64,000 bases of DNA from an uncultured Bacteroidales bacterium (GTDB lineage Bacteria; Bacteroidota; Bacteroidia; Bacteroidales; UBA10428). Location of the stretch: contig CAZFQS010000001.1 of the NCBI GenBank assembly GCA_964521285.1, forward strand, positions 62,438 to 126,437. The letters run 5' to 3'. Below, one piece after another: positions 1 to 25,361 of the stretch (position 1 is its first letter; every line of letters begins with the position of its first letter). The position numbers were made by a program, and so were the translations under genes. The notes under the pieces are model-generated. The model was not told the origin of the DNA. It saw nothing but the letters and a program-made list of their open reading frames with translations, and ran no database searches.

Positions 1-2
1 TT

Positions 3-1154
3 TGGGTTGTTATACCGTTTGGCGTTTTGGGAGTACTAACCTTTACTACACCTGACATAAGTATCAATGGTAAAATAATATATGCTTATATAACTTATAT
101 TTTGCTTACAATGGCCTATACAATGATCAATGTGCCCTATTCTGCACTAATGGCGGTCATCACACCCGATTCTAAGGAACGAACTGTGATTTCCTCTTTC
201 CGGTTCGTAGCCGCATTTGTGGGGCAATTCATTGTTCAGTATGCCATTTTGAAATTGGTCAGTGTATTCGGGGATGGGAATGAGGCTAAGGGCTGGCAAT
301 TGGCTATGATTGTTCTTTCTGCTTTAGCGGTTATTCTGTATTTAATAACTTTTTCTACAACCAGGGAACGTGTTAAACCAATAAAAGAACAAAAGACACC
401 ATTTAAGCAGGATCTGATAGATTTATTTACCAACAAACCATGGGTACTGATAGCTGTCGCAACCATATTCCAGCTTATGTACAATTGCATGCGAAATGGT
501 AATATCATGTATTACTTTAAGTATTTTGTGCTGGATCAGCAAATGATTTTTTTTGGAAAAACCTATCATTTTTCTTATCAGGACCTGACAACTGCATTTA
601 TGCTTTCCGGTACCGCTTTGACCATTCTTGGAGCCATTCTGACAATTAAGTTGAGCAGGCGTTTTGACAAACCGAAAAGTTATGCCGGTTCTTTAGGTAT
701 AACCGCTATAGTAACAGCTCTTTACTATTTTCTCAACCCAAAGGATATTATCCTAATGTTTGCACTGAATCTTATTATTTCCTTTGCAATTGGAATTGTT
801 TCTGTATTACAATGGGCTATCTATACGGATACCACTTATTATTCGGAATGGAAAACAGGTCGTCGTGCTTCCGGGCTTCTCATGTCTGCCTCGCTGTTCG
901 CACTGAAGCTTGGAATAGCCCTGGGAAGTGCTTTTCTGGCATTCATCCTGGCCAGGTATGGTTTTGAAGCCAATGTACAACAGACGGCAGAAACATTAAC
1001 AGGCATACGTTTGGTTATGAGTGTTTACCCTGCCATTATCGCCTTCATTGGTGTTATTATTATATGGTTCTTTTATCCTTTATCAAACAAAATGTTGATC
1101 AGTATTGAGGAGGAACTATCTGCACGACGTCAATCTTCGAGTGATGATAATTGA
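3..1154 (+). CDS. Glycoside-pentoside-hexuronide (GPH/MFS_2) cation symporter, 5'-truncated by the window edge; probable xylo-oligosaccharide importer
   Basis: The frame is open from base 3 (WVVIPFGVLGVLTFTTP). GPH motifs: MAYTMINVPYSALMAVIT, ERTVISSFRF, TRERV, YSEWKTGRR, ANVQQTAETLTGIR. Multiple TM helices; adjacent to xylanases. Confidence 0.88.
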   Translation, partial: WVVIPFGVLGVLTFTTPDISINGKIIYAYITYILLTMAYTMINVPYSALMAVITPDSKERTVISSFRFVAAFVGQFIVQYAILKLVSVFGDGNEAKGWQLAMIVLSALAVILYLITFSTTRERVKPIKEQKTPFKQDLIDLFTNKPWVLIAVATIFQLMYNCMRNGNIMYYFKYFVLDQQMIFFGKTYHFSYQDLTTAFMLSGTALTILGAILTIKLSRRFDKPKSYAGSLGITAIVTALYYFLNPKDIILMFALNLIISFAIGIVSVLQWAIYTDTTYYSEWKTGRRASGLLMSASLFALKLGIALGSAFLAFILARYGFEANVQQTAETLTGIRLVMSVYPAIIAFIGVIIIWFFYPLSNKMLISIEEELSARRQSSSDDN

Positions 1155-1194: not shown

Positions 1195-2292
1195 ATGGAG
1201 AAAAGTAGTATCCGGAATAATAAAAATAAACAAAATCAACCTGCTTTGAAAGATGTATTTAAGGATGATTTTGATATCGGTGTTGCCCTTAATCTGGATC
1301 AGATTTCAGGTAAGGAACCAAAAACCACTGCACACGTGGAAAAACACTTTAACAGTATCACACCTGAAAATATTCTAAAATGGGAAGAGGTTCATCCGGA
1401 ACCAAACAGATATCATTTCGAACCGGTCGATCGTTATGTGGCTTTTGGTGAGAAGAATAAAATGCATATCATCGGCCACACCCTTGTATGGTTTCATCAG
1501 ACACCAGACTGGGTATTCCGGGATGAGTCAGGTAAGCCCTTGGACCGGGAGGTATTACTAAAACGGATGAAAGAACATATCTTCACTGTGATGGGCCGGT
1601 ATAAAGGGCGAATACATGGCTGGGACGTCGTTAACGAAGCCATAGTACCTGACGGTCAGTTCAGAAAATGTAAATGGCTAGATATTATTGGTGAAGATTA
1701 TGTGATCAAAGCTTTTGAATATGCCCGCCAGGCTGATCCCGATGCCGAGCTGTATTACAATGATTATAATTTTTACAGGGGGCGTCAATGTGAAACTGTT
1801 ATACGTTTAATTCAAAACATGCAGTCAAAAGGTGTACGTATAGACGGGATTGGTTTACAGGGACACTGGGGTCTGGATTATCCCAGTTACGAACAGATTG
1901 AGAATATCATCGGGTCTCTTTCCAAACTGGGCGTCAAGTTAATGATTACGGAAATGGATGTTACAGTTCTTCCTTTTGCTGAAGATTATCTGGATAAAAA
2001 ACTTACCTCTTTAGATCCCGGAATGCAAATGAAGTTGAATCCATACGCCAAAGCATTGCCAGAATCTGTTCAAAAAGAGCAGGCCAAAAGATATGCTGAA
2101 TTCTTTTCGATTTTTCTAAAGCACCGTGACAAGTTCAAACGAGTCACTTTTTGGGGAACCCACGACAGACAATCCTGGCGCAGTGACTGGCCAGTCATTG
2201 GGCGGACCGACTTTCCCTTATTGTTCGACAGTAAATGTGACCCAAAACCAGCCCTTGATGCCATCATTCAAACAGGTCTGAGTAAAAAGTAA
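1195..2292 (+). CDS. GH10 endo-1,4-beta-xylanase, no signal peptide (cytoplasmic)
   Basis: TPENILKW, GHTLVWFHQTP, WDVVNEA (acid/base Glu), YNDYN, IDGIGLQGH, ITEMDV (nucleophile Glu), RVTFWG. The N-terminus is hydrophilic. Confidence 0.95.
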   Translation: MEKSSIRNNKNKQNQPALKDVFKDDFDIGVALNLDQISGKEPKTTAHVEKHFNSITPENILKWEEVHPEPNRYHFEPVDRYVAFGEKNKMHIIGHTLVWFHQTPDWVFRDESGKPLDREVLLKRMKEHIFTVMGRYKGRIHGWDVVNEAIVPDGQFRKCKWLDIIGEDYVIKAFEYARQADPDAELYYNDYNFYRGRQCETVIRLIQNMQSKGVRIDGIGLQGHWGLDYPSYEQIENIIGSLSKLGVKLMITEMDVTVLPFAEDYLDKKLTSLDPGMQMKLNPYAKALPESVQKEQAKRYAEFFSIFLKHRDKFKRVTFWGTHDRQSWRSDWPVIGRTDFPLLFDSKCDPKPALDAIIQTGLSKK

Positions 2293-2344: not shown

Positions 2345-3562
2345 ATGGAGAATAAAAAAGATATTGAAATTATAGCAGCAGGCCATACCTGCCTTGATTT
2401 AATACCTGCTTTTACAATCGAAGAAAAAGTAGACAATATGACCGATGTCCTGGTCCCCGGTAAAATGATAAATATGGGTAAGTGTGTTGTTGTCGGTGGC
2501 GGGCCGGTAACAAATGCCGGTGTATCTATACGGAGACTTGGTGTTAAAACTGAATTAATCGGAAAGGTAGGAAATGATGATTTTGGTAAACAGATTCTCC
2601 GGTGGTATGAAGAATATGAAGGTCATTTTGAAGGCATTAAAGTTGTGGATGGTGAATCAACCTCATATACAATAGCGATTTGCATACCAGGGATTGACCG
2701 TTTTTACCTTCATCATTGCGGTGCAAATGACACATTTGGTTATGATGATATGAACTTTGATCTTGTGCTGCGTTCAAAACTGATGCTTTTTGGTTACCCT
2801 CCATGGATGGCGAAGCTTTATGATAATAAAGGTATTGAATTAACAAAAATCCTGAAAAAGACAAAGGAATTAGGAACCACAACTGTACTTGATCTTTCGC
2901 TTCCTGATGTAAACAGCAGGGCCGGTCAGATCGATTGGTTAACAATTCTCAACAACTGGGTCCCTCTGACAGATATTATGGTACCCAGTGCAGAAGAAAT
3001 TTTCTATTTTCTTTATAAAGATAAATTTCTTAAGAAAAAGGCAAATCTCGGACCCAAGGAGAGTGTGCTTGATCATATGACTATAAGCGAAATTTCAGAT
3101 CTGGGAAATGATTTAATAAAAATGGGGACGGCAATAGCTATGGTAAAATGTGGCCATAGAGGATTATATATCCGGACTGCTGATATAGATCGGCTAAAGA
3201 AATCAGGTGCAGCAGAATGTGCTGATTTCGAAAACTGGGCTAATCGCGAACTTTGGTTTCCTGTATATGAGGAGGAAAAATTTGTGGGTGCATTGGGTTC
3301 CGGTGATTCGGCAATTGCAGGATTTCTTGCGGCATTTGTCTGGGGTCATACGATTGAATCCTGTCTGAAATATGCAAATGCTGCCGGAAGTATGAATGTT
3401 ACCGTTCCTGATGGTCTTTCCTGGAATAAAGGATTTGATGATTTAACAAAACGGATTCAAGCAGGCTGGAAGACAAAAGATTTGAAAATTGATGAAAAAG
3501 GCTGGAAGCATGAGCGTGGATTTTGGGTTGGTCCAAATAATCTTGGGAAATGGGAATCATAA
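2345..3562 (+). CDS. PfkB/ribokinase-family carbohydrate kinase, substrate unknown
   Basis: GGGPVTNAGVSIRRLG, GKVGNDDFG, C-terminal anion-hole motif GALGSGDSAIAGF, ANAAGS. Confidence 0.88.
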   Translation: MENKKDIEIIAAGHTCLDLIPAFTIEEKVDNMTDVLVPGKMINMGKCVVVGGGPVTNAGVSIRRLGVKTELIGKVGNDDFGKQILRWYEEYEGHFEGIKVVDGESTSYTIAICIPGIDRFYLHHCGANDTFGYDDMNFDLVLRSKLMLFGYPPWMAKLYDNKGIELTKILKKTKELGTTTVLDLSLPDVNSRAGQIDWLTILNNWVPLTDIMVPSAEEIFYFLYKDKFLKKKANLGPKESVLDHMTISEISDLGNDLIKMGTAIAMVKCGHRGLYIRTADIDRLKKSGAAECADFENWANRELWFPVYEEEKFVGALGSGDSAIAGFLAAFVWGHTIESCLKYANAAGSMNVTVPDGLSWNKGFDDLTKRIQAGWKTKDLKIDEKGWKHERGFWVGPNNLGKWES

Positions 3563-3590: not shown

Positions 3591-5408
3591 ATGTTAAAAA
3601 AAAGAGATGAATTCATCAGGAAAAAGATAGAAGGCATGAGCCTGGCAGAAAAGGTAGGTCAGCTTTTAACCTTTACCCGCCGTGGCACATTGCTAACCCC
3701 AAGCGGAATTGAACAAATTACCAAACTGCATTGTGGCGGTCTTTGCCTTGAGCCATACGCACTAGAAACCTGTAAAAATCTTTACTGGGGCAATTCCCAG
3801 GTAGATAAAAACTTTAAAAAACCAAAGGATTATTTTACCATAGCAAATAACTATTTTGCCGGTAAGACTTTTGGTATCAGTATTACACCGGAAGAATACA
3901 CAAAAGATTTAAACAGGTTGCAGAAAATTGCCATGGACAGACCCTCCGGGATACCTCTCCACATGACCATTGACTTCGAAGGTGATTTTAAGAACGACTA
4001 CATGTCAGGCGGTATAAGGCAATTCCCTGGTCCAATGGGTATGGCTGCAATCGGTGATCCCAAACTGACCTATAAAATTGGCTATACCATTGCCAAGCAA
4101 CTAAGTGCTATAGGTGTTACACAGATGTATTCCCCGGTTTGCGACGTGAATACAAATCCCAGGAATCCTGAAATTGGAGTCAGGTCATTTAGTGATGACC
4201 CTCAGATGTGTGCTGAACATGCTGTTGCTTTGATTAAAGGTTTACAGGACGGAGGCATAGCTGCAACCGGGAAACATTTCCCGGGAAGAGGCAATTCGGG
4301 TAGTGACGCTCATGATGTATTGGAGATTTTAGATATGGATAAAAAAAGAATGCATGAAGTTGAATTGGTTCCTTTCAAAGCAGCAATAGATGCCCGAGTT
4401 AAAGCTATTATGACTGGGCATTCTGTTTATCCGGCCTATGATGATAAATACCCAACAACATTGTCAGTAAAAATACTGACCGGACTTCTCAGAAATGAAT
4501 TAGGATTCGATGGTGTTATTGTTTCTGATGCCATCGGTATGGCTGCAATTCTTAAAAAGTGGCCTCTCCCGCAAGCTTGCGCAATGGCAATAAAAGCAGG
4601 CTGTGATACAATACTCTTGAAGGCTGATGATGAATCCAGGTCACAGTGTTTCTTTGGGATTAAACAGGCTGTTGAGAAGGGGGAATTATCCGAAGAAAGA
4701 GTTGATGAATCTGTAAGGCGTCTTTTAATAATGAAATACGACCAGGGATTGTTTGAAACAGCCGGTAAAAAAGACCCAAAGGAAACATTCAAAATTACCA
4801 CCAGTAAAGAAATTATAGATTTCTCCTGGGATGTTGCCAAAAAAGCCCTGATAATAATGCGGGACGAAAAAAAATTGCTTCCGCTAAATCCGGAGAAAAG
4901 AATACTTGTCATTGAACAACGTATCCCTTATGAATTTATTGGTAAGGATCCATATTTCCACACTCACATGTTTTGCGAGGCAATGGTAAATCATTCAACA
5001 AATTTGATTCTGGCCGACACAGCATTTTCTGCATTTGATGAAGAAATTGAAGAATGTCTTCAGCTTGCCAGACAGGTTGACCTTGTTGTGATGACCAATT
5101 ACTATGCAAGGATCGTAAAATCAGGTAATAATCAACTACTTATAAAGAAGTTGAAGAATGCAGGACATCAGGTTGTAGTGGTAACCAACAATCCCTATAT
5201 AGAGGGCACTACAAAGGAAGCTGATGCCGTAATCTGTAATTTCAGTGGTACACCTGATTCCATAAGAGTTTCAACAGAACTGCTTTTTGGAAAGATTAAA
5301 CCATCTCCAAAAACCAGATTGCCAATCACTCTTGGTATTCACGAGGCAGTTGCTGACAAAAAGCTAAAACCGCCAAAGAAACATCCTTTGGATTTATCTT
5401 ATTGTTAG
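3591..5408 (+). CDS. GH3 glycoside hydrolase/phosphorylase of the NagZ-like subgroup, atypical, no signal peptide
   Basis: PVCDVNTNPRNPEIGVRSFSDDP, KHFPGRGNSGSDAH (cf. KHFPGHGxxxxDSH), IVSDAIGM nucleophile, C-terminal GH3_C-like domain. Strong GGAGGA Shine-Dalgarno upstream. Confidence 0.85.
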   Translation: MLKKRDEFIRKKIEGMSLAEKVGQLLTFTRRGTLLTPSGIEQITKLHCGGLCLEPYALETCKNLYWGNSQVDKNFKKPKDYFTIANNYFAGKTFGISITPEEYTKDLNRLQKIAMDRPSGIPLHMTIDFEGDFKNDYMSGGIRQFPGPMGMAAIGDPKLTYKIGYTIAKQLSAIGVTQMYSPVCDVNTNPRNPEIGVRSFSDDPQMCAEHAVALIKGLQDGGIAATGKHFPGRGNSGSDAHDVLEILDMDKKRMHEVELVPFKAAIDARVKAIMTGHSVYPAYDDKYPTTLSVKILTGLLRNELGFDGVIVSDAIGMAAILKKWPLPQACAMAIKAGCDTILLKADDESRSQCFFGIKQAVEKGELSEERVDESVRRLLIMKYDQGLFETAGKKDPKETFKITTSKEIIDFSWDVAKKALIIMRDEKKLLPLNPEKRILVIEQRIPYEFIGKDPYFHTHMFCEAMVNHSTNLILADTAFSAFDEEIEECLQLARQVDLVVMTNYYARIVKSGNNQLLIKKLKNAGHQVVVVTNNPYIEGTTKEADAVICNFSGTPDSIRVSTELLFGKIKPSPKTRLPITLGIHEAVADKKLKPPKKHPLDLSYC

Positions 5409-5428
5409 TATTACGGAGGAAATATCAT

Positions 5429-7990
5429 ATGCATAAACTTCACAGTATAGAAATAAAGGACGTTTTCACTATTTCCGGAGCTCAAATAAGCGAGATTTAT
5501 AAAAAAAATAAAATGTCAGTCCATTTTCAGGGAATGTCAAAAACACTTCAGTTCCCTCATACCATTGCTCTTCAGGGGGCTCCAACCTGTTCGGCAGGCA
5601 TTTCTCCCGAAGGGTTGTACAACAGGCTTAATGATGCGGGCAGATTGATCCTGTTGAATCAAAATGCCATTCAATTTGCTTCAGCACCATTTATACGCAT
5701 CTCAGCGGATCCTGATGTGGAAGATTCGAGAGATGAGCATATTATGCTCACCACAAGGAACCCCAGGCTGGTAGAAGGTCCGGATGATGTACCTGCCCTG
5801 AAGAACTATTATCACCCTGTTATATCTGAAAACCAATTCTCTGTCTCATTGGCCACACCTCTGGCAGAATTGGTCTATACATTGGAAAAAGTCAGGGTTA
5901 CCAGGAGAATAATTTCTCCTTTTCTCTCAGGAAATGATCAGATGTTAATGCCTGTGTGCGTTGAGGAATTCGAGGTAAAAAATACTTCCGGTAAAACTCA
6001 AAAAATTACTCTGGTCTTACCCAGGCCATCACTGGTAAATCTCCAGGAAAAAGAATTAAAACCGACAGACCAGGATACTATTTATTTATGCGCAACTCCT
6101 GTGAAAGGGCATGTTCATGAAGCTTTCAAATCAGCGGGTATGACAGGGATTATCATGGCAAGCAGGGAATGTCAGGATAAAATGGTCATTGGTGTGCCGG
6201 AAATGAACAATGTGAACATAGATACACAGCCATATTTTTGCCTGAACAGACTTAAACAGGATTTATTATTGAATGATGACGGAAGTTTTTACGAAAAGAG
6301 AGCCCCTATTATTAAACAAGATTATGGATCGGCCATTAGTCTTTGTTTTACACTTGAACCCGATGCATCAGTTATAATACCTCTTGTCATAGCTTTAGAC
6401 TTCCCGCAACAGCATTATATTGACGGTAAAATGTTTGATCGCTCGTATCTCAGAACTTTTAAAAACAAAGAAACCAGAGCTTTGGATATGACTAAAATTG
6501 CACTGGAAAACTATCCTGATTGGCTTGAACGTACATTGACTATCCAAAGCAGAATATTTGATCAAATATGTCACAGTCCTTCCTATAAAGACGATAAGGA
6601 CGGTGCATTGAGACTGTCACGATTAATTTTTAACGAATTCAGTTTTCCATTATCAAATGCTGCCATCTGGACTGAAGACAAAGATGGCAATGATGTAGCC
6701 AGGTTCCTGGAATGTTTTGACTATGCTTATATCAATCCTTCTGATGTTGACTGGTATTCCATGGTGTTGCTGGTTCTCTTTCCTAATATTGAACAGGAAC
6801 TCTGCCAGCGGTTTATTGACTCAATTCTGGCTGAAGATCCTACACCCCGATTTTATCATTACCACTCTTCATTTGTAGAAGCCAGAAAACACTATTATGA
6901 CTATACGGATGAATATGAAGGTGAATCGATGACACAGATACGGGATGCTTTTAAGATTAAAGGCAGCGTAGCCCATGATGTAGGCGCTATGCCGAAAGGT
7001 CATCCCTTACGAAATGTAAGTGATTACGCATGGTACAACAATAATTACTGGGTAGATCTTTTCCCGAAACTGGCATTAAGGGTTTTACGCAATGTCAAAT
7101 TCCTGGATAATACTAAATTCTTAAAGAAAAACTGGGAAACACTTAAGTTTGGCCAGGAATTTTTAATGGCTCTTGATATTGATAAAGACGGTGTTCCTGA
7201 AGGTAATCCGAATGAAGTTAAAAATACTTTTGATAATTTAACCTTATTTGGTGTGGATGCTTATGATGTCACTACTTTCCTGGCTGGTGTGCAGGCAATG
7301 ATTAAAATGGCAGACATGATGAAAGATGAACCTGCTAAAAAGCAATACCGGCAAATGTTTGAAAAAGCTTCGGAAAGTTTTGAAAAACTATGGAGAGAGA
7401 AGAAAAACAAAAAGGGTCGCACATTGCAGTATTATATCACCTGTTACGATCCGGAAACAGGGAAAACAAATACAGATACATGGACCAACCAGCTGGATGC
7501 TTTATGGTATTTGATCGCTATTGGCGAAGAACCCTTTATCTCCGGGGACAAGGCAAAAAAAATCCTAAAGACCATTTATGAGAATAACCGTACCACTATG
7601 GGCTGGGCAATGTGCCGAACAGAGGACGGAGAAGCAGTAGAATCGGAACAGGGGCAGGATGTCTATACAACATCAAATTATGTTTTTGCGCAGCTGCTTG
7701 ATTATTATGGAATGGGCAAAGAGAGTAAAGAGGTATACAAAGCAATGGATAAGGTAGTATTCCGGCACGGTAATACATTGATTACACCGGATAACCTCAG
7801 GGCTGAATTGGAAAAAGAAGAAGGAGAAGTAACCAAAGGCCCCCATTATATAGTAGCCGCTTATCCACGGCCAGGAGCGGTATTGACTCATATAGTGATG
7901 CAACACATCAAAGAGCTTCAGAATCAAACGAAATCTACAATAATAGATTCCGGGGAATTGAAATCTTATATAACTAATTTAATGAAGTAA
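5429..7990 (+). CDS. Divergent GH116 (GBA2-like) beta-glycosidase, no signal peptide
   Basis: FLECFDY nucleophile motif, SDVDWY, AHDVG, WVDL, DIDKDGVPEG..NTFDNL..G..AY (cf. PDQTYDTW..G.SAY), QLDALWY. Start moved from the TTG at 5402 to the ATG at 5429, which follows GGAGGA. Confidence 0.75.
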   Translation: MHKLHSIEIKDVFTISGAQISEIYKKNKMSVHFQGMSKTLQFPHTIALQGAPTCSAGISPEGLYNRLNDAGRLILLNQNAIQFASAPFIRISADPDVEDSRDEHIMLTTRNPRLVEGPDDVPALKNYYHPVISENQFSVSLATPLAELVYTLEKVRVTRRIISPFLSGNDQMLMPVCVEEFEVKNTSGKTQKITLVLPRPSLVNLQEKELKPTDQDTIYLCATPVKGHVHEAFKSAGMTGIIMASRECQDKMVIGVPEMNNVNIDTQPYFCLNRLKQDLLLNDDGSFYEKRAPIIKQDYGSAISLCFTLEPDASVIIPLVIALDFPQQHYIDGKMFDRSYLRTFKNKETRALDMTKIALENYPDWLERTLTIQSRIFDQICHSPSYKDDKDGALRLSRLIFNEFSFPLSNAAIWTEDKDGNDVARFLECFDYAYINPSDVDWYSMVLLVLFPNIEQELCQRFIDSILAEDPTPRFYHYHSSFVEARKHYYDYTDEYEGESMTQIRDAFKIKGSVAHDVGAMPKGHPLRNVSDYAWYNNNYWVDLFPKLALRVLRNVKFLDNTKFLKKNWETLKFGQEFLMALDIDKDGVPEGNPNEVKNTFDNLTLFGVDAYDVTTFLAGVQAMIKMADMMKDEPAKKQYRQMFEKASESFEKLWREKKNKKGRTLQYYITCYDPETGKTNTDTWTNQLDALWYLIAIGEEPFISGDKAKKILKTIYENNRTTMGWAMCRTEDGEAVESEQGQDVYTTSNYVFAQLLDYYGMGKESKEVYKAMDKVVFRHGNTLITPDNLRAELEKEEGEVTKGPHYIVAAYPRPGAVLTHIVMQHIKELQNQTKSTIIDSGELKSYITNLMK

Positions 7991-8149
7991 GCATTGTGCC
8001 AATACCACCAAAAAAATGAAAGTGCTTTCTTCGGATATATCATTGTTCATATCTCAAACCAAAGAAAGCTTTGATCAAGAGCTTTGCGGTCTGTTAAATC
8101 ATTTTGGATTGATAAATTTTATTTAACTCAAAAGCAGGAGGAAATTAAC

Positions 8150-9967
8150 ATGTCATTTAAAGTTTTTTACAGCTCAGTTTTTGTTCTGTGCCTTATGCCG
8201 TTTGTATGCTCATTTGGCGACTCTAATATACTTGATAACCACGGTTTTGAAAGAGGAAGGGACGGTTGGTTCGATCGAACCTGTGCAATAGAAGCTGTTT
8301 CATCACCGGTTCACAGTGGTACAGGAAGCGTGAAAGTAATCCACAGATTACAAAACTGGCAGGGAATTAAACAGTCAGTATTTGGCAAAATGATAGATGG
8401 AAAAACATATCAGGTATCAGGCTGGGTAAGGCTTGATAATGCCCAAAGTGATTTGGTCGCTATATCATTTGAACAACAGGATGATGGAGGTACTAGATAT
8501 TATAATGTAGCCCGGGCCCTGGCATCAGACACCGGATGGATTCAGCTTTCCGGAGAATTTACCTTGAATGTGACAGGTACGCTGTCTGTTCTGGATGTGT
8601 ACTTTGAAGGTCCTGCACCAGGAGTTAATTTTTATGTTGATGATGCGATTGTATATGGTCCTGAAATCGATGCTCCAAAAGTAATCCCGGCCAAACCCAA
8701 CGGGAAAGGCAGGATTAATATTGGTATTCGTCATCAGAAAATAGAAGGATTTGGTGCCTCCGGAGCATTTTATACAATGGACCTGTTAAAACATAAGAAA
8801 AAAGATGAACTGATGAATTTGCTTTTTAAAGACCTTGGCCTGGATATCTTCCGCATTAGAAATACATACGAAATGGACTCTAATACTTTCTACGAATCTG
8901 CTGAAATAGCCAGAAATGGTGAAGCTGCCCTCGGGCGCGATTTGAAGATTCTGGTTTCATCATGGTCACCGCCGGTTTACCTGAAAAGCAACGATAACAA
9001 AATAGGTGGAACGCTTAAGCAATGCAATGGAAAATATATGTATGATGAATTTGCACAGTGGTGGTATAATAGCATTGCTGCTTACAATAAAGCAGGTCTG
9101 AAAATTTATTATATAAGCATACAGAATGAAGTTGATTACGAAGCCCCATGGCAATCATGCAAATTTGCTCCTGCAGAAAATCCAGGTTCAAACCTGGCCG
9201 CCTATGACAAAGCCTTCGAGACGGTTTGGCACAAACTGAATTCTGAAATGGGTTCTGCCATGCCAAAGATGCTTGCACCCGAATCGTCCGGTTTAGGGAA
9301 CGCCAAAGAGTATATAGAAAATTTAGATAGTTTGTCACATGTTTATGGATATGCAGTACATTATTATGATTGCAGTGGGTGCGGCTCTTCTCCTGACAGG
9401 TTTATTCCACGAATGAACAGTCTGAGTAACTTTATTATGCAGTATGGCAACAAACCTTTGTTTCAGACAGAGTTTGAGGATGAACCAGGAACTTGGAAAG
9501 ATGCGATCAATATGGCATTGGTTATATACAATTCTCTTACAGCAGCTAAAGTTTCAGCTTATCTTTACTGGGATCTATTCTGGGCTCCGGGAACTGCTTT
9601 GGTCAGCCTGGACGATTCGTCTTCTTACACAATTAAGCCCACCTATTATGCCTTCAAGCAGTATTCAGCATATATTGATGCAGACTGGCAACGCTTGGAT
9701 GCTGTTACGGATAATGCTGGTCTGAGGTTATCGGCTTTTATCAGCCCTGATAATAAAAAATTAACGGCAGTAATACTCAATGTCAGTGACAGTGTGGATA
9801 TTTCGCTCAATCTTGCCATAAAGAATTTTTCTGTATCCAAAGGTGAAATTTATCGATCCAGTAAAATGGAAAACTGTGTTCTTGTGGGAAACTATGATGG
9901 AAAGGGTTTATTAAAAATACCTAAAAATTCTGTTACCACCCTTTTACTTTATGCCAAGGGAAAATGA
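8150..9967 (+). CDS. Exported CBM4/22-GH30 xylanase-like protein (glucuronoxylan xylanase subgroup likely)
   Basis: Signal peptide MSFKVFYSSVFVLCLMPFVCSFG. CBM_4_9 module (NHGFE...GKTYQVSGWVR...FYVDD). GH30 motifs GFGASGA, SSWSPP, IQNEVDY, FQTEF, AYLYWDLFW. ATG at 8150 follows GGAGGA. Confidence 0.85.
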   Translation: MSFKVFYSSVFVLCLMPFVCSFGDSNILDNHGFERGRDGWFDRTCAIEAVSSPVHSGTGSVKVIHRLQNWQGIKQSVFGKMIDGKTYQVSGWVRLDNAQSDLVAISFEQQDDGGTRYYNVARALASDTGWIQLSGEFTLNVTGTLSVLDVYFEGPAPGVNFYVDDAIVYGPEIDAPKVIPAKPNGKGRINIGIRHQKIEGFGASGAFYTMDLLKHKKKDELMNLLFKDLGLDIFRIRNTYEMDSNTFYESAEIARNGEAALGRDLKILVSSWSPPVYLKSNDNKIGGTLKQCNGKYMYDEFAQWWYNSIAAYNKAGLKIYYISIQNEVDYEAPWQSCKFAPAENPGSNLAAYDKAFETVWHKLNSEMGSAMPKMLAPESSGLGNAKEYIENLDSLSHVYGYAVHYYDCSGCGSSPDRFIPRMNSLSNFIMQYGNKPLFQTEFEDEPGTWKDAINMALVIYNSLTAAKVSAYLYWDLFWAPGTALVSLDDSSSYTIKPTYYAFKQYSAYIDADWQRLDAVTDNAGLRLSAFISPDNKKLTAVILNVSDSVDISLNLAIKNFSVSKGEIYRSSKMENCVLVGNYDGKGLLKIPKNSVTTLLLYAKGK

Positions 9968-9989: not shown

Positions 9990-12917
9990 TTAATCATTTT
10001 CTTCTTCCAACCTGTAATAACTTTCAGGCGGTCCCAGATAACTTGGACTGACTTTGCCTGTTTCAACAACAACCTTCTGTAAAACAATGCCCGGATCAAC
10101 CATCCAGAACTTAAGTATATGCCTGCCTGATTCAGTGATGTCATGTTCTGAAACACCGATTGTAATATTGCTTCTCACGGATTCCTCCCAATCCTGAAAT
10201 GTTTTGTCCTTATGGATATTTACAATCTGCGGTTGTTCATCATCAAAGGAAACAGCATAACATAATCCCTCATCGTTATGGAAATTTAATGTGGGTGATA
10301 TATAGGCTTTAACCTTTGCCTGTCCGCTGTTAAAGAGATGCATCTGGTATTCAAGATGAGGACTGTTACCTCCGGGGGACTGGCTTTCAGCCGTAACAGG
10401 AACAGGGGTCATTCCTGAAAGCGTGCGGCCCAGGTCCGGAATATGCAGCCACCGGACCGGTTCTGCATCAACTGCCCTGGTATAATGCTCAGCCTCCATA
10501 GAGACGTAACGATTACTTTCAACAAATCCTGTTATTTGGTCTTTTTCCGGAAACCCATAGTTGTTAACAATAGCCCTGACAATAACACTGGTACCATCCG
10601 GCCCGTTTACACTTATCGGAACATTGTGTATTCCGATAGGTACCTGCTGCCAGTCAACACTCACCCAGACACGCTGTTCCTCATCTACTTTTCCTTTATC
10701 GGGCGTAACATATAACCAGGTTTTTTCGGTTTCAATTACATAATCAAAAGGTACCTGCCCCCGGTTAAATACTTCTATATAATATTTCTGCTGATTAAAA
10801 GGATCAAAACCGGGTAATACAGCACTGCTCTTTTCCATTGGCCACCAGTTGTCTGATCCCTCAATTGCCACCCCCATTTCTGCAATATCGGGCAGGTCTA
10901 TCTCCTTAACTTCAGGCATGTTATTCTGTTCTGGTTGCTGCCAATAGGTATAACCGATATGTGTCTGCGACATCATATGATTCCACTTACCTCCTGCCAT
11001 TTCGGTATGGAAGTAATCTGTTAATTCCGCATCCTTGGCAAACAACTCTCTAACCCGCTGTGCCATTATATTTGTGGCAGCCCGCTTCTGGTTAGCATAT
11101 AAACGGTTCTTTCCTGCAGTAACATAGAGGTCGTTAAGATTTGCACAGGCTTTTACCGGAAAGAGTACAAGCTGGTAATATGCATCTTTATATTCGGGAG
11201 GCAATTTCATGTAAATCTTTTCAGCTTCATCAGCCAGCTTATTGTAGTCAGCTACGACAGTTTCCGCTTCTTTAAAGTCAGTCAGGCTATAAATATCCGG
11301 GTCAAGTAACTCAGGTTTTCTGCGTCCATTGTATTTAGTATATTTTGAGAGTATATCTGCAATAGCTGCCGAGTAACGGTCTCCAAATTGTTGCTTTGCC
11401 CACATCCTCGTGTATTCTGGCAGAGCTTCAGCAGGCCATTCCTCAGGATTCCATGCATAGTCAAGAAAAAACTGGGTAGGAAATTCCATGGGTTTTATAT
11501 CTCCTACATTAACTATCCAAATTTGCTTTGCGCTGTAACGATAAGCCAGGTGCATCTGTTCCCATACTCTTGGAATAGGATTTGTATTCAGCCATTTATA
11601 GTTTCTCGGTCCACCGACATAATCAAAATGATAATATATACCATATCCACCTGACCGGTGTGGGTCTCCAGGCCTGGGTAACTTTCTTATATTACCCCAG
11701 TTATCATCGCACAGTAACAATGTTACATCATCAGGCACCCTCATACCTTTATCATAATAGTCCTGCACTTCCTTATACAGAGCCCATTTCTGGGGAGTGG
11801 AAGCTGCCGGCTTGCCGGTTACTTCTTCAATAATTTCTCTCTGATCATTAACAATTCTTTCCAGCAGGGCTATCGCAGTACCTTCTGTCATCGGCTCATC
11901 ACCATCGCCCCTCATACCCACAGTAACAATACTCTCGTATGAGTCCATCCTTTGTATACCTTCCCTCCAGAACTCCTTTAAAGTATCTTCATTGAGTTCA
12001 TAATTCCATCTCCCCGAGCCAAAACGTCTCCATTCGTCATGAGCCCTCATCAGAGGTTCGTGGTGTGATGTCCCTATAACAATACCATATTCATCTGCTA
12101 ATTTCGGATTAAGCGTATCATCCGCGTAAAATGCCCTGCCCCACATTGCAGGCCACAGATAGTTACCTTTTAGCCTAAGTATAAGTTCAAAAACATTCTC
12201 ATAAAACTTATGGTTAAAACCCCCGAACTTTTCATAGGCCCACCCGGAAAGTGCCGGTGCCTCATCATTAATGAAAATCCCCCTGTATTTTACTGCAGGC
12301 TCTCCCCTTGTATAGCGCCCCGGCAACATAAAAAGATCAGGATTGTGTTCTACAGGTACATCAGCCCACCAGTACCATGGTGAAACACCTATATTTGCAG
12401 AAAGATCATATATGCCATATATTGTACCCCGCTTATCACTGCCTGCAATGACCAGGGCACGTTTAACACCTCGCAGAGGCTCTTCCAGAACCTCCATGAC
12501 AAATGATTCCCATCTGCCCTTAATATCCTCAACATCAAGTTTCCCGTCCTTTACCAGCTTATCTATAACAGGGCTTTTGCCCAGTGTGCCAATAAGCATA
12601 ACCTGTTCTAAAGCAGGTAATTTATTTATATAAATCCGGGGTTCTGTATTTGTTACACGGCCAATGTCATCCTGCAAATCCTCCACTGCCCTTATTACTC
12701 CAGGATAATCCTCCTCACTTACAAATAATGGGGAAGATTTTCCCTGTGCGGAAAGGACAAAGCTGAAACCGTCATTTTTCGTTGATATGTAGGACGTATT
12801 ATATGCATCCACGTTAGATTGTGGAAAAACTAAAGTACCCACTGAACAGAACAACATAAAGAAACCAAGTCTTGGTTTTTTATATAACAATAGAGAAAAG
12901 TCAGAATGTTTTGCCAT
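9990..12917 (-). CDS. GH115 xylan alpha-1,2-(4-O-methyl)glucuronidase
   Basis: GSDKRGTIYGIY, GVSPWYWWADVP, YRGIFINDE, LKGNYLWPAMW, GTSHHEPLMRA, DDNWGNIR, YYHFDYVGGPRNYKW, WIVNVGDIKP. Hydrophobic N-terminus. Confidence 0.95.
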   Translation of the reverse strand: MAKHSDFSLLLYKKPRLGFFMLFCSVGTLVFPQSNVDAYNTSYISTKNDGFSFVLSAQGKSSPLFVSEEDYPGVIRAVEDLQDDIGRVTNTEPRIYINKLPALEQVMLIGTLGKSPVIDKLVKDGKLDVEDIKGRWESFVMEVLEEPLRGVKRALVIAGSDKRGTIYGIYDLSANIGVSPWYWWADVPVEHNPDLFMLPGRYTRGEPAVKYRGIFINDEAPALSGWAYEKFGGFNHKFYENVFELILRLKGNYLWPAMWGRAFYADDTLNPKLADEYGIVIGTSHHEPLMRAHDEWRRFGSGRWNYELNEDTLKEFWREGIQRMDSYESIVTVGMRGDGDEPMTEGTAIALLERIVNDQREIIEEVTGKPAASTPQKWALYKEVQDYYDKGMRVPDDVTLLLCDDNWGNIRKLPRPGDPHRSGGYGIYYHFDYVGGPRNYKWLNTNPIPRVWEQMHLAYRYSAKQIWIVNVGDIKPMEFPTQFFLDYAWNPEEWPAEALPEYTRMWAKQQFGDRYSAAIADILSKYTKYNGRRKPELLDPDIYSLTDFKEAETVVADYNKLADEAEKIYMKLPPEYKDAYYQLVLFPVKACANLNDLYVTAGKNRLYANQKRAATNIMAQRVRELFAKDAELTDYFHTEMAGGKWNHMMSQTHIGYTYWQQPEQNNMPEVKEIDLPDIAEMGVAIEGSDNWWPMEKSSAVLPGFDPFNQQKYYIEVFNRGQVPFDYVIETEKTWLYVTPDKGKVDEEQRVWVSVDWQQVPIGIHNVPISVNGPDGTSVIVRAIVNNYGFPEKDQITGFVESNRYVSMEAEHYTRAVDAEPVRWLHIPDLGRTLSGMTPVPVTAESQSPGGNSPHLEYQMHLFNSGQAKVKAYISPTLNFHNDEGLCYAVSFDDEQPQIVNIHKDKTFQDWEESVRSNITIGVSEHDITESGRHILKFWMVDPGIVLQKVVVETGKVSPSYLGPPESYYRLEEEND

Positions 12918-20238: not shown

Positions 20239-21744
20239 ATGAATAACCCGGTTAATTATGAAGTCTGGTTTGTTACAGGCAGCCAGCATTTATACGGAGA
20301 AGAAACCCTTAAACAGGTAGAAAAAAACTCAAAAGATGTAGTTTCAGGCATATCAGATGCCATAAAATCGCCTGTAAAAATTAAGTTTAAATCTGTTCTG
20401 ACCACGCCTGAAGCAATAACAAAGATTTGCCATGAAGCAAACAGTTCGGAAAACTGTATAGGACTAGTTGCATGGATGCATACTTTTTCACCTGCTAAAA
20501 TGTGGATTACAGGCCTGAAAAATCTTGTAAAGCCTTACGTGCATATGCATACTCAATATAACAGAGATATACCATGGAATGAAATAGATATGGATTTCAT
20601 GAACCTTAATCAGTCAGCCCACGGAGGAAGAGAATTTGGCTTTATTAATGCCCGGATGGGCATTGAAAGGAAAGTGATTGTCGGTCACTGGAAAGATACA
20701 GAAGTAATAATAGAGCTGGATATATGGCTCAGAGCTGCTATTGGCAGGCATGAACTGTCAACATTAAAAGTCGCACGTTTTGGCGATAATATGCGTAGTG
20801 TTGCAGTTACCGAGGGTAACAAGGTTTCAGCCGAGATCCAGTTCGGATTATCTGTTCACGGATATGGTGTTGGTGACCTGGTCGACTATGTAAACAATGT
20901 ATCTGAAAGTGCTGTTAATGCTTTGTTTGATGAGTATAAAGAACAATATTCAATTAAAGCATCTATACTCGCTGACAAGAAATATATTGCTGCAATAAGG
21001 GATCAGGCAAAATTAGAATCAGGTATGAAATCTTTCCTTGAAGATGGAGGATTTAGAGCATTTACAACCACATTTGAAGATCTGCACGGACTAATTCAAT
21101 TGCCGGGACTTGCAGTGCAGAGGTTGATGAATCAGGGTTACGGATTTGGCGCCGAAGGTGACTGGAAAACTGCTGCCCTGGTAAGGGTGATGAAAGAAAT
21201 GGCTACAGGTATGAAGGGGGGAACCTCATTCATGGAGGATTATACCTATCACCTCGACCCTAAAGGAATGAAAGTGCTGGGAGCACATATGCTTGAAGTA
21301 TGTTCATCTATTGCGGCAGGTAAGCCCTCATTAGAAGTTCATCCCCTGTCAATCGGAGGGAAAGCTGATCCTGCACGCCTGGTATTTAAGGCTCCGACAG
21401 GTGAAGCACTAAATGTTTCACTTATGGATATGGGAAACCGTTACCGTTTACTTGTTAATAAAGTCGAAGTGGTTGACATTCCTGATTTACCTAAACTACC
21501 TGTTGCAAGAGTCCTTTGGGCACCGAAACCGGATTTGAAAGTTGCAGCCGGGGCATGGATACTTGCCGGAGGTGCACATCACACAGCATTTACACAATCG
21601 CTTTCAATTGATCATATTATTGATTTAGCTGAGATGGCAGGTATTGAATGCCTTGTAATTGATGAGAATACAAACATCCCTGATTTTAAAAAGGAAATAA
21701 AATTAAATGAGGTGTATTATTTTTTAGCTAAAGGTATCCGATAA
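20239..21744 (+). CDS. araA: L-arabinose isomerase
   Basis: [72 protein letters not shown]. Confidence 0.98.
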
Positions 21745-21761
21745 AATAAAAACTAATAATT

Positions 21762-22475
21762 GTGCTTAAAACACTAAAAGAAAGGGTATTACATTCAAAT
21801 TTGAGTCTTGTTAAACACGGACTGGTAATTTTTACCTGGGGAAATGTAAGCGGTATTGATCGTGAGAAAGGACTGGTTGTTATAAAACCCGGCGGGGTTT
21901 CCTACGATGATATGAAAGCTGATGATATGGTGGTCGTTGACCTTGAAGGAAATGTTGCTGAGGGTGATTTAAACCCCTCATCTGACACACCCACTCACCT
22001 TGTTTTATATAGAAACTTTGAGAAAATAGGTGGAATTGTACATACTCACAGCGAGTGGGCAACCAGCTGGGCACAGGCCGGAAGATCCATACCTGCTTAT
22101 GGTACCACCCACGCTGATTATTTCTATGGTGAAATACCTTGTACCAGAAAATTAACCAGAAAAGAAATAGATAAAGATTATGAATTGAATACCGGTAAAG
22201 TAATTGTTGAAAGGTTTAAAGAACTGGATTATGAAGCTTTGCCCGGTGTTTTGGTAAACGGCCATGCTCCTTTTGCCTGGGGGACTGATCCTGAAGAGGC
22301 AGTTCATAATGCTGTAGTTATGGAAGAGGTAGCAAAAATGGCATTGAGAACTGAAGTATTAGGGAATACGAATCCTGTGGACATGTATCTACTGGATAAA
22401 CATTACATGCGTAAGCATGGTAAAAAGGCCTATTACGGGCAAAATAAAAAAAATGACTCCCGGGACAAACAATGA
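21762..22475 (+). CDS. araD: L-ribulose-5-phosphate 4-epimerase
   Basis: [42 protein letters not shown] start. Confidence 0.97.
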
Positions 22476-22529
22476 AGCAACATTATAATCTTTAAACATA
22501 TTAATATTTTAATATAAAAAGTATATAAA

Positions 22530-24209
22530 ATGAATAATATAAAATATGTTATTGGAATAGATTACGGTACTGACTCAGTAAGATCAGTTCTTGTTAATGC
22601 AGCAAATGGAAAAGAAATCGCTGATTCGGTCTTTTACTATCCGAGGTGGAAAAAGGGAAAATATTGCTCACCAGCCGATAATCAGTTCAGGCAACATCCT
22701 CTTGATTATATTGAAGGACTGGAGTATACAATAAAGGAATTGCTGTCAAAAAGCGGTACTGATGTGGCAAATAATATAGCAGCTATGGCTGTAGATACCA
22801 CAGGGTCTACACCTGTTGCTGTTAATGAGAAGGGTGTACCATTGTCACTGACCCCAGGATTTGAAGAAAATCCTAATGCTATGTTTGTTCTCTGGAAAGA
22901 TCACACCTCAGTCAGAGAGGCAGAAGAAATTAACCATAAAGCAAAGAACTGGGGTGGTACAGATTATACGATGTATGAAGGCGGTGTTTACTCCTCAGAG
23001 TGGTTTTGGGCCAAGATCCTGCATGTACTTCGAGAAGATAAAAAGGTTCGCGAATCAGCATACTCATGGGTGGAACATTGCGACTGGATACCGGCTTTGC
23101 TTACAGGTGTAACTTCTGTTCACAAAGTAAAAAGAAGCAGGTGTGCGGCAGGGCATAAAGCGATGTGGCACGAGAAATGGGGCGGCCTCCCTTCAGAAGA
23201 TTTTCTTGTATCTATTGATCCCCTGCTATCGGGTCTGCGGGAAAAATTATACACCGATACTTACACTGTGGATAAGCAGGCAGGGAAAATAACAGGGGAA
23301 TGGGCAAAAAAACTCGGACTCCCGGAAGGTGTTATTATTGGCGTTGGCGCTTTCGATGCCCATTTGGGAGCAGTTGGAGGTGAAATAAAACCTTATTATA
23401 TGTGTAAAATAGTAGGTACTTCAACCTGCGATATCCTTGCTGCTCCAAAAGAAGACCTTGGAGATAACCTTGTTCAGGGTATTTGCGGACAGGTTGACGG
23501 GTCTGTTCTCCCCGGAATGATAGGTCTTGAAGCAGGACAATCGGCATTCGGAGATGTATATGCATGGTTTAAAGAGCTTTTATTATGGCCTGTGGAAAAC
23601 ATTTTACAAAAATCCGATAAGCTTGATAATAATACCAAAAATGAACTGATGAAAAATATCACAGATGAGCTTATTCCTGTACTATCTGATGAAGCAAAAA
23701 AAGTACCAATTGACGAATCAGGAGTCCTTGGTCTGGACTGGTTAAACGGGCGAAGAACTCCCGATGCAAATCAGAACCTTAAAGGAGCTATTGCCGGCCT
23801 GTCATTAGGTTCCGATGCACCCAGAGTATTCAGAGCCCTGGTAGAGGCTACGGCTTTCGGGTCCAAGGCTATTGTAGAAAGGTTTATTGAGCAAGGTGTC
23901 AGAATTGATGGAATTATCGCATTGGGGGGTGTTGCTAAAAAATCAGATTTTGTCATGCAGGTTTTAGCTGATGTATTAAATAAACCTCTGCTGGTTGCTA
24001 CCTCTGAACAGGCCTGTGCCCTTGGTTCAGCAATGGCAGCATCAGTTGCAGGAGGTATTTATACAACCTTTGATCAGGCAAAAGAAAAGATGGGAAACGG
24101 GTTTGAAAAGGAATATCATCCAAATCCCGCAAATGCTGAAAAATATCAAAAGATTTATAGTAAATACATTAAGCTTGGAAAATTTATAGAAAATGAACTA
24201 ATTAAATAA
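22530..24209 (+). CDS. araB: Ribulokinase
   Basis: IGIDYGTDSVR, FRQHPLDY, VLWKDH, YSSEWFWAK, RCAAGHK, FDAHLGAVG, EAGQSAFGD, DWLNGRRTP. Confidence 0.96.
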   Translation: MNNIKYVIGIDYGTDSVRSVLVNAANGKEIADSVFYYPRWKKGKYCSPADNQFRQHPLDYIEGLEYTIKELLSKSGTDVANNIAAMAVDTTGSTPVAVNEKGVPLSLTPGFEENPNAMFVLWKDHTSVREAEEINHKAKNWGGTDYTMYEGGVYSSEWFWAKILHVLREDKKVRESAYSWVEHCDWIPALLTGVTSVHKVKRSRCAAGHKAMWHEKWGGLPSEDFLVSIDPLLSGLREKLYTDTYTVDKQAGKITGEWAKKLGLPEGVIIGVGAFDAHLGAVGGEIKPYYMCKIVGTSTCDILAAPKEDLGDNLVQGICGQVDGSVLPGMIGLEAGQSAFGDVYAWFKELLLWPVENILQKSDKLDNNTKNELMKNITDELIPVLSDEAKKVPIDESGVLGLDWLNGRRTPDANQNLKGAIAGLSLGSDAPRVFRALVEATAFGSKAIVERFIEQGVRIDGIIALGGVAKKSDFVMQVLADVLNKPLLVATSEQACALGSAMAASVAGGIYTTFDQAKEKMGNGFEKEYHPNPANAEKYQKIYSKYIKLGKFIENELIK

Positions 24210-24216
24210 AATTACC

Positions 24217-25353
24217 ATGAAAAAACTAGTTATATTCTTAGTAATTGTTGCTTTGGTATCATGTAAAACTAAAGTGGGCGATAAAGAGTCATGCAAATCA
24301 GACCTCTTAAAAAAAGAAGCATTTGAGAAAGAAATAGATGGGAAGAAAACAAGTCTGTATATTTTGGAGAATGCTAATGGGATAAAAGTATATATTACAA
24401 ACTATGGAGCACGTGTTGTATCCTTGCTGACACCCGATAAAGAAGGGGAATGTGCAGACATAGTCCTGGGATTCGATAATATTGACAGCTATCTTAAAGA
24501 CAAAATGTACCTGGGATGTATTGTCGGACGCTATGCTAACAGGATAAATGACGGAAAATTTACTATTGATGGTCAGGAATACAATTTATTTTTGAATGAT
24601 GGTCCGAACACCCTTCATGGCGGCCAAAAAGGTTTTGATAAAAGGGTATGGGATGCCAGACAGGAAGGTAATACACTGACCCTGTCATATCTGTCACCCG
24701 ACGGTGAAGAAGGTTATCCCGGTAACCTGCAGATAAAGAAAATATATACCCTCACAGATGAAAATGAACTTAAAATGGAATATGAAGCTGAAACTGATAA
24801 GACTACTATAGTGAATTTATCTCATCACAGCTATTTCAATTTAAAAGGGGAAGGTGATACAACTATTCTCGACCACTACTTAATGGCTGATGCTGATTAT
24901 TTTACACCTGTTGACAGCACACTTATACCTACAGGGGAAATAAGGCCTGTTGTTAATACTCCTTTCGATTTTACAAAAGGAAAGCAAATAAGTCAGGATA
25001 TAGGTATGGAAAATGAACAGCTGAAATTTGGCCTTGGTTATGATCATAACTGGGTACTTAATAAAGATTCGGCAAATGCACTTACTTTTGCAGTAAAACT
25101 GTGGGAAGAAACAACCGGAAGGGTCATGGAAATTTACACTACTGAACCTGCTTTTCAGTTTTACAGTGGAAATTTTATGGACGGCTCTGTCACTGGAAAA
25201 TCAGGGAAGCCTTATAAATACAGGGCTGCTTTGGCCATTGAGCCCCAGCATTTTCCCGATTCTCCCAATCATCCCGAATTTCCTTCTACAGTACTCAGAC
25301 CTGGTGAAAAATACAGACAGCTTAGTATTCTGAAATTTGGTATTTCCGAATAG
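24217..25353 (+). CDS. galM: Aldose 1-epimerase (mutarotase), lipoprotein
   Basis: Lipobox-like LVSC, GRYANRI, LHGG, DGEEGYPG, HHSYFNL, GYDHNWV, QFYSGNF, EPQHFPDSPN. Confidence 0.95.
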   Translation: MKKLVIFLVIVALVSCKTKVGDKESCKSDLLKKEAFEKEIDGKKTSLYILENANGIKVYITNYGARVVSLLTPDKEGECADIVLGFDNIDSYLKDKMYLGCIVGRYANRINDGKFTIDGQEYNLFLNDGPNTLHGGQKGFDKRVWDARQEGNTLTLSYLSPDGEEGYPGNLQIKKIYTLTDENELKMEYEAETDKTTIVNLSHHSYFNLKGEGDTTILDHYLMADADYFTPVDSTLIPTGEIRPVVNTPFDFTKGKQISQDIGMENEQLKFGLGYDHNWVLNKDSANALTFAVKLWEETTGRVMEIYTTEPAFQFYSGNFMDGSVTGKSGKPYKYRAALAIEPQHFPDSPNHPEFPSTVLRPGEKYRQLSILKFGISE

Positions 25354-25361
25354 ACATTAGT

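Follow-up and report, generated by a model that had tools for sequence, protein, structure and literature searches.

A NagZ-like GH3 protein with altered motifs is co-inherited with a PfkB-family kinase and a GH116 enzyme in xylan loci of uncultured bacteria

What is the task of a NagZ-like protein of glycoside hydrolase family 3 (GH3) when its recognition motifs are altered and a sugar kinase is encoded directly in front of it? This question is raised by a 64,000-nucleotide stretch of DNA from an uncultured Bacteroidales bacterium (assembly GCA_964521285.1, contig CAZFQS010000001.1, positions 62,438 to 126,437), here called the window, in which the GH3 gene occupies positions 3591..5408 of the forward strand. 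We propose that its product is an exo-beta-glycosidase which descends from the NagZ branch, has no role in the turnover of N-acetylglucosamine (GlcNAc) or muropeptides and, together with a GH116 enzyme encoded next to it, finishes the cytoplasmic breakdown of xylan oligosaccharides, the kinase trapping the product. We put the probability of this reading at about 45%, somewhat short of even odds.

The gene is intact, since 3591..5408 (+) is a stop-free open reading frame (ORF) of 605 aa. Inspection of the translation revealed no signal peptide at the N-terminus. The ATG is preceded by AAGGAGG. Membership of GH3 is evident from the match to PF00933 (Glyco_hydro_3; E 1.6e-76, 258 bits against a cut-off of 27), the match to Glyco_hydro_3_C being weak. 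An AlphaFold2 (AF2) model built on 67 homologues (predicted local distance difference test, pLDDT, 94.3) has the two-domain GH3 fold, and translation, Pfam and model together describe a cytoplasmic member of the Asp/His-dyad (NagZ) lineage. Among solved structures, Foldseek placed 6k5j first (E 4e-41, template modelling (TM) scores 0.78/0.90) and also returned B. subtilis NagZ (BsNagZ) and BglP (5vqe, TM 0.76/0.82). The same relatives were recovered by sequence, namely 6k5j (1e-68), B. subtilis NagZ/YbbD (about 1e-62) and BglP (5vqd, 2e-33).

The original prediction, made from the DNA letters, had described an enzyme that keeps the Asp-His dyad within an altered NagZ signature, and its motifs are borne out by the translation. 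The signature loop KHFPGRGNSGSDAH (residues 228-241; 4272..4313 (+)) contains the acid/base dyad Asp239/His241 and the sugar-binding residues Lys228 and His229. It departs at two positions from the NagZ-type consensus KH(F/I)PG(H/L)GX4D(S/T)H, which the prediction had quoted as it is given in bioRxiv 10.1101/2022.04.25.489410: Arg233 stands for H/L and Ala240 for S/T. The triad of residues D239-A240-H241 is invariant, and the full consensus signature occurs in none of 196 close homologues. At the position of Arg233, the best five matches of the signature segment among solved structures all have His, none of them being a structure of the type with Arg. In place of DQEGGxVxR the protein reads DFEGDFKNDY (residues 128-137, within TIDFEGDFKNDY; 3972..4001 (+)), in which Asp128 is kept, and the Gln, Gly, Val and Arg have given way to Phe129, Asp132, Lys134 and Asp136, respectively. 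The canonical Arg thus aligns with Asp136, a reversal of charge. The motif SDAIGM (residues 312-317; 4524..4541 (+)) includes Asp313, the predicted catalytic nucleophile, which aligns with D318 of BsNagZ and with the GH3 nucleophile in general. Further changes lie nearer the N-terminus. The motif GGLCLEPY (residues 49-56; 3735..3758 (+)), with the clade-specific residues Cys52, Glu54 and Tyr56, stands where canonical NagZ has GGxxLFxRN, and is followed by a 43-aa insertion. At the C-terminal end of strand beta-1 of the AF2 model lies Arg30-Arg31 (3678..3683 (+)), of which Arg31 is invariant in the clade of this protein (clade A) and its sister clade (clade B) and rare elsewhere. In an alignment of 67 sequences (A1), D128, E130, R198, K228, H229, D239, H241 and D313 are invariant or conserved to at least 90%. 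The protein has thus kept its nucleophile, its sugar-binding core and the Asp/His residues, and the safest reading of this conservation is that the protein would be a catalytically competent retaining enzyme.

A column-by-column comparison among the 150 best representatives from a library of 1.8 billion proteins allowed these motifs to be placed. The canonical HG-type reads GGxxLFxRN after strand 2, DQEGGxVxR and KHFPGHGDTxxDSH. The RG-type, to which our protein belongs, reads GGLRxxP with an insertion after strand 2, DQEGDxSxD and KHFPGRGDSxxDAH. Clade A reads GGLCLEPY after strand 2, DFEGDFKNDY and KHFPGRG(N/D)SxxDAH, with Arg31 at the end of strand 1 in addition. The clade signature can be written as TFTxRG, GG(L/I/V)CLEPY, D(F/M)EGDFKNDY, KHF(P/A)GRG..DAH and (I/V)VSDAIGM. 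When mapped on a 71-sequence tree, the RG label requires 4 changes, against 20.6 with shuffled labels, and the RG-type is a broad and nearly monophyletic branch of the Asp/His-dyad GH3s. The expectation that KHFPGRG would mark a clade was correct, but this clade is far wider than the gene for which it was proposed. Within the branch, clade A is supported at 98%, and clades A and B together at 100% on a long stem. The GH3s of clade B are 66% identical to ours, and their signature (GG(L/I/V)CLEPY, DMEGDFKNDY and KHFAGRGDSxxDAH) is near-identical in 119 sequences. Neither in the literature nor among solved structures did we find a characterised member of clade A, of clade B or of the wider RG-type group.

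The altered motifs are no accident of one gene: in the 196 full-length sequences of clade A, 190 of the 605 positions are invariant, all signature residues among them, as well as D128, R198, K228, H229 and D313. More than 120 clusters (at 90% identity) are 80-96% identical to our GH3, and the next relatives among the 150 best library representatives reach at most 44%. A scan with one genome per species yielded 80 loci at 75-85% GH3 identity, some of them on megabase contigs, in Fidelibacterota, KSB1, Spirochaetota, Planctomycetota, Verrucomicrobiota, Bacteroidota, Ignavibacteriota, Acidobacteriota, Chloroflexota and WOR-3. By contrast with this wide range, the gene is rare within its own phylum, being carried by 4 of 301 genomes in an even sample, and by 0 of the sampled genomes of the same order or class. 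Between the window and related loci, pS is 0.64-1.0 and dN 0.10-0.16, with omega at or below about 0.06-0.08 for GH3 and kinase. Since synonymous sites are saturated, the high identity is not just the trace of very recent transfer, and recent horizontal transfer as its sole cause is ruled out. The shallow crown on a long stem, the partial intermixing of phyla and the 4/301 count point instead to lateral spread and, after it, strong purifying selection. Transfer itself is still needed to account for the few genomes of the own phylum and the mixed phyla on the tree.

The setting of the gene is equally constant. In the window it belongs to a forward-strand operon in the order GPH-GH10-PfkB-GH3-GH116. 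The first gene (1..1154 (+); PF13347 E 5e-63, TIGR00792) encodes a glycoside-pentoside-hexuronide:cation symporter of the GPH family (MFS_2). It starts 256 nt before the window, its full ORF has 469 aa (L117), and it is preceded by unrelated genes. There follow a cytoplasmic GH10 endo-xylanase (1195..2292 (+); PF00331 E 9e-99), whose N-terminus MEKSSIRNNKNKQNQ... has no hydrophobic leader or signal peptide, and a highly divergent PfkB-family sugar kinase of 405 aa (2345..3562 (+); PF00294 E 1.5e-18). Directly downstream of GH3 lies the GH116 gene (5429..7990 (+); PF04685, PF12215), the product of which has a nucleophile (LECFDY) and an acid/base residue (TFD) that align with those of TxGH116. 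GH3 and GH116 are the sole exo-acting candidates in the operon. None of GH10, kinase, GH3 and GH116 has a signal peptide. Two enzymes encoded beyond the operon do have one, a secreted CBM4_9 plus GH30-like (XynC-type) protein (8150..9967 (+); signal peptide after an internal Met) and a secreted GH115 alpha-glucuronidase convergent to the operon (9990..12917 (-); PF15979 E 4e-158, hydrophobic leader).

According to tblastn in the 80 loci, a kinase of 79-88% identity directly precedes GH3, and a GH116 of 60-82% identity directly follows it, almost everywhere. ORF clustering, which covered the 77 of the 80 loci whose GH3 ORF clustered, counted PfkB in 75/77 loci, GH116 in 70/77, GH10 in 51/77 and GPH in 43/77, followed by GH43 beta-xylosidase (19), GH115 (18), xylA (14), GH8 (11), xylB (9) and GH67 (4). 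The recurrence of GH10, GPH and other xylan genes argues for a context of cytoplasmic processing of imported xylan oligosaccharides. Clade B shows the same association in another arrangement. Its loci are xylan loci too, with the order GH3-GH116-PfkB, the GH116 being orthologous (63% identity) and the GH3 having about 615 aa with KHFAGRGDSATDAH and DMEGDFKNDY (L113:10001-15319, L115:10001-15537, L116:10001-15466). GH10, GPH, GH115, GH8, GH30 and GH52 genes were also seen in clade B loci. The combination of GH116, xylan and PfkB was not found in a literature search, and the trio may represent a new catabolic module.

In view of this context, could the protein still be an ordinary NagZ, that is, a beta-N-acetylglucosaminidase that serves peptidoglycan recycling or the use of chitin? 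Its best solved relatives are indeed GH3 beta-N-acetylglucosaminidases (6k5j at 1e-68, BsNagZ), and the Joint Genome Institute (JGI) labels homologues as beta-N-acetylhexosaminidase. Against the NagZ equivalog model (NCBIfam PRK05337), however, the protein scores 147.3 bits, below the cut-off of 207. Every member differs at two consensus positions and at the conserved +1 Arg, the xylan context is invariable, and presence in 4/301 genomes of the phylum is not a housekeeping pattern. Moreover, further His-type GH3s exist in the genome. Another GH3 of the genome outscores ours against PF00933, and a canonical-looking NagZ is encoded elsewhere. A housekeeping NagZ role is thus very unlikely, and we consider the ordinary enzyme, in cell-wall recycling or chitin use alike, to be extremely improbable. 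The prediction's claim of altered GlcNAc recognition needs some refinement. The recognition positions do depart from NagZ, but the Arg of DQEGGxVxR, replaced by Asp136 here, has been described as a conserved +1-subsite residue of structure-determined GH3 beta-N-acetylglucosaminidases (PMC6987092), so its loss concerns the aglycone side and not GlcNAc recognition. The new specificity that was also proposed fits the operon and the separate canonical-looking NagZ, which both argue against GlcNAc or muropeptides. A second aberrant His-type GH3 was noticed in the same genome (G000 contig 4, L007:1171-2937), a lipoprotein of 588 aa with KHFPGDGSTIRDQH and with MEDYERG instead of DQEGG, preceded by a large glycosidase-like ORF.

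The kinase association, which the prediction had noted as mere adjacency, turned out to be nearly universal, and it extends to the sister clade with a different kinase. The 405-aa kinase is distant from all solved relatives (best E 2.6e-12), with the GG motif and the catalytic Asp of GSGD kept. The PfkB proteins of clade B have 295-309 aa and are essentially unrelated to it (E 0.015). Two non-orthologous PfkB kinases in different positions beside the same GH3-GH116 pair indicate that the link is functional and not just inherited gene order. This two-kinase pattern speaks most strongly for kinase activity as part of the pathway. By fold the kinase matches ribokinase, YdjH and IolC alike. No kinase match in NCBIfam reaches a curated cut-off; the kinase of the window has weak matches and one clade B kinase none. 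Fold and hidden Markov models, with generic ribokinase, YdjH and IolC as best matches, were thus uninformative on the substrate. A replacement xylulokinase or ribulokinase is excluded, because the genome has a xylB-like gene beside xylA (contig 42), and the window itself includes araA-araD-araB. A kinase running in reverse, which would gain ATP from xylose-1-phosphate, was rejected on thermodynamic grounds (our own estimate from textbook free energies). A predicted complex of GH3(1-590) with the kinase scored 0.00, a value that says nothing on binding either way. On contig 12 of the same genome lies a paralogue of the long PfkB (412 aa, full-length identity 36%), within a gene string of Zn-dependent alcohol dehydrogenase, PfkB and xylose-isomerase-like TIM barrel (L102:262-3950). 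This string may serve the use of a polyol or a ketose and so give a hint of the substrate class of the kinase subfamily.

Starting from the intact gene, the GH3 fold, the conserved catalytic residues, the clade signature, the co-inheritance and the strong purifying selection, we infer a substrate, an order of steps and a choice between water and phosphate as follows. Xylan oligosaccharides would enter through the GPH symporter and be pre-cut by the GH10 enzyme that lacks a signal peptide. GH3 would then most likely remove a beta-xylosyl-type residue, possibly decorated, from the non-reducing end, GH116 would perform a complementary exo step, and the kinase would trap a released product that is presumably neither xylulose nor ribulose. 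At the active site Asp313 is predicted to attack the anomeric carbon and His241, held by Asp239, to protonate the leaving group, after which water or, with lower likelihood, phosphate would resolve the glycosyl-enzyme. The sugar hydroxyls would be bound by Lys228, His229, Arg198 and Asp128, in the manner of other GH3s, and Arg31, Cys52, Glu54, Tyr56, Phe129, Asp132, Lys134, Asp136, Arg233 and Ala240 might redefine the -1/+1 subsites.

Several points weigh against this proposal. The nearest characterised protein is only 28% identical to our GH3. Xylose has no primary hydroxyl and its own pathway is present, so that a xylosidase followed by a product kinase leaves no obvious substrate for the kinase. 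Nineteen loci already hold a GH43 beta-xylosidase, which would make a second and a third xylosidase redundant there, and the extreme conservation over the whole length exceeds what is usual for a simple exo-xylosidase.

In a rival reading phosphorylation comes first. PfkB would then act on the imported oligosaccharide or its decoration (at the 5-OH of an arabinofuranosyl side chain, or at an anomeric or secondary OH), GH3 would be a phospho-glycoside hydrolase in which Arg31, Lys134 and Arg233 hold the phosphate, and GH116 would take the unphosphorylated remainder. The two non-orthologous kinases tied to one GH3-GH116 pair suggest a need for kinase activity itself, and three extra basic residues are invariant in motifs that are predicted to lie near the active site. 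Pairs of a kinase and a phospho-beta-glycosidase serve uptake that does not depend on the phosphotransferase system, as in BglK with phospho-beta-glucosidase, and PfkB members such as heptose-7-phosphate 1-kinase and inositol 3-kinase phosphorylate anomeric or secondary hydroxyls. On the other hand, xylopyranosyl residues offer no primary hydroxyl, and to our knowledge no GH3 phospho-glycosidase has been described. The basic residues are a doubtful argument as well. Compared with its relatives the clade has gained basic R31, K134 and R233 but also acidic E54, D132 and D136, and it has lost two arginines, so that no net cationic shift follows from the sequence. The anion pocket for phosphate or uronate, which the prediction had read into the extra Arg, can hardly be upheld on three basic and three acidic gains, and we dropped a cationic pocket from consideration. 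Nor is that Arg tied to the kinase, as had been suggested. RG-type proteins at 37-44% identity have no adjoining kinase and yet share Arg233, in several cases beside or fused to GH154, which makes it an old trait of the subfamily and not an adaptation to this kinase. Phosphorylation ahead of cleavage appears unlikely.

The prediction had favoured a phosphorylase and seen it as fitting the adjacent kinase. In such an enzyme phosphate would attack the glycosyl-enzyme and release a beta-sugar-1-phosphate, for instance beta-xylose-1-phosphate, in the way of Nag3 and BglP. The dyad is complete and without variation, with His241 as putative acid/base, a feature which is necessary but not sufficient, the enzyme is cytoplasmic, and the structure of BglP (5vqe) ranks with the best matches. 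That GH3 phosphorylases with an Asp/His dyad exist is established (PMC8950772), but the dyad alone does not predict this activity, given that RmNag3 has it with no clear effect of phosphate (PMC6987092) and that Nag3 of H. seropedicae was reported without phosphorylase activity (PMC4680927). Identity to BglP is only 20-21%. Furthermore, a phosphorylase arrives at sugar-1-phosphate with no need of a kinase, which would leave the obligatory kinase unexplained instead of fitted. We know of no route that uses beta-xylose-1-phosphate. Phosphorolysis is therefore distinctly improbable in our view.

A further explanation starts from the uronate side chains of xylan. An enlarged C2 or C6 pocket of GH3 would accept a residue that bears or neighbours (4-O-methyl)glucuronate, GH3 would clear glucuronoxylan fragments beyond the reach of ordinary xylosidases, and the kinase would act on a uronate-derived product. 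This would be in line with the glycoside-pentoside-hexuronide family of the transporter, with the secreted GH30 glucuronoxylanase-like enzyme and the GH115 at the locus, and with the best weak matches of the kinase, IolC, KDG kinase and YdjH, which include kinases of keto-deoxy-acid sugars. RG-type relatives point in the same direction, since they lie beside or are fused to GH154: PF10022 is encoded right behind the RG-type GH3s P0123 and P0127, while P0124 unites PF10022 and GH3 in one protein. PF10022 corresponds to GH154, for which beta-glucuronate 4,5-dehydratase activity was demonstrated recently (PMC12269599), and the RG-type subfamily may deal with uronate-containing glycans. Across L096:8001-11879, L098:1377-3964 and P0124, the RG-type GH3 directly precedes PF10022 or forms one protein with it, and one RG-type relative neighbours sulfatases, fucosidases and an alginate-lyase-like gene. 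SN243, a GH3 of NagZ type, binds a C6 carboxylate through an Arg. However, glucuronate in xylan is alpha-linked, and GH3 and GH116 are beta-retaining. Arg52 of the RG-type relatives is Cys here, and GH115 or GH67 occurs within 10 kb in only 22/77 loci. A pocket adapted to uronates is accordingly a long shot for this clade.

Apart from the individual mechanisms, kinase and GH3 might act on the same molecule. The trio would then be an unrecognised phosphorylation-dependent route for xylan oligosaccharides, with the first GH3 phospho-glycoside hydrolase or beta-xyloside phosphorylase. We regard this as a doubtful but serious possibility. If true, anaerobic bacteria and bacteria of peat and sediment would draw enough benefit from this route for it to have spread over more than 10 phyla and been held under an omega below 0.1.

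The remainder of the window holds an arabinose operon and housekeeping genes. The L-arabinose operon (20239-26045) is complete, with araA, araD, araB, galM and a NUDIX-type (NtrR-like) regulator, and lies 7 kb from the xylan operon. Two gene starts in the neighbourhood deserve a comment. The longest GH116 ORF begins at a TTG that overlaps the GH3 stop (5402-5428), and the ATG at 5429, with a GGAGGA-like site upstream, is the likelier start. Similarly, the GH30-CBM4_9 ORF opens with TTG (8084-8149), but a sequence resembling a signal peptide comes only after the Met at 8150, where the gene probably starts.

Xylan ranks with the most plentiful biopolymers, and its degradation by bacteria is regarded as well mapped. 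A trio whose GH3 and kinase are conserved across phyla like core translation proteins occurs in xylan loci of uncultivated bacteria from peat, sediments and digesters. This pattern suggests that a step, or a feature of the substrate, is missing from current models of hemicellulose turnover, and the GH3 gene probably marks an undescribed step in xylan breakdown. Within GH3 the enzyme stands out as a novel variant.

Compared with known systems, the closest solved enzymes are 6K5J of Paenibacillus sp. FPU-7 and B. subtilis NagZ/YbbD (3BMX, 3NVD, 4GYJ), which share with our protein the two domains, the Asp nucleophile, the Lys-His pair, the Arg of GVRSF and the Asp/His dyad on the loop after KHFPG. 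Identity to them is only 25-28%, however, and our GH3 differs by Arg for His/Leu and Ala for Ser/Thr in the signature, by DFEGDFKND for DQEGGxVxR, by GGLCLEPY plus the 43-aa insertion for GGxxLFxRN, and by its cytoplasmic place in a xylan operon, whereas this group comprises a lipoprotein of cell-wall turnover. The RG-type relatives next to GH154 (37-44% identity) are similar in the Arg/DAH signature loop, the Asp motif (DQEGDxSxD in the relatives), NPEI..R and the insertion after strand 2. Unlike our protein they keep Arg52 in GGLR and lack Arg31, Lys134 and Phe129, and their partners are GH154, sulfatases and other glycosidases in place of PfkB and GH116. The phosphorylases BglP (BglX, 5VQD/5VQE) and C. 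fimi Nag3 resemble the GH3 in the His/Asp acid-base pair, size and fold, and set a precedent for NagZ-lineage enzymes with substrates other than GlcNAc, BglP acting on cello-oligosaccharides; in the literature found, neither was reported in a module with a kinase and GH116. Another precedent, for a modified signature going along with another sugar, is SN243 (7QE1), a metagenomic NagZ-type GH3 beta-glucuronidase without activity on GlcNAc. SN243 is secreted, has 821 aa as expressed and reads KHFPGGGX6DPH, with Gly at the H/L position, in contrast to Arg, X4 and DAH in our cytoplasmic protein. Neither this signature nor a NagZ-conserved carboxylate-binding Arg was found here, and the sole N-terminal Arg conserved in the HG-type appears to align with Tyr56. 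After BglP and SN243, the clade would be the third case in which automatic beta-N-acetylhexosaminidase labels on NagZ-like GH3s are probably wrong, and its explicit sequence signature allows such mis-annotations to be flagged.

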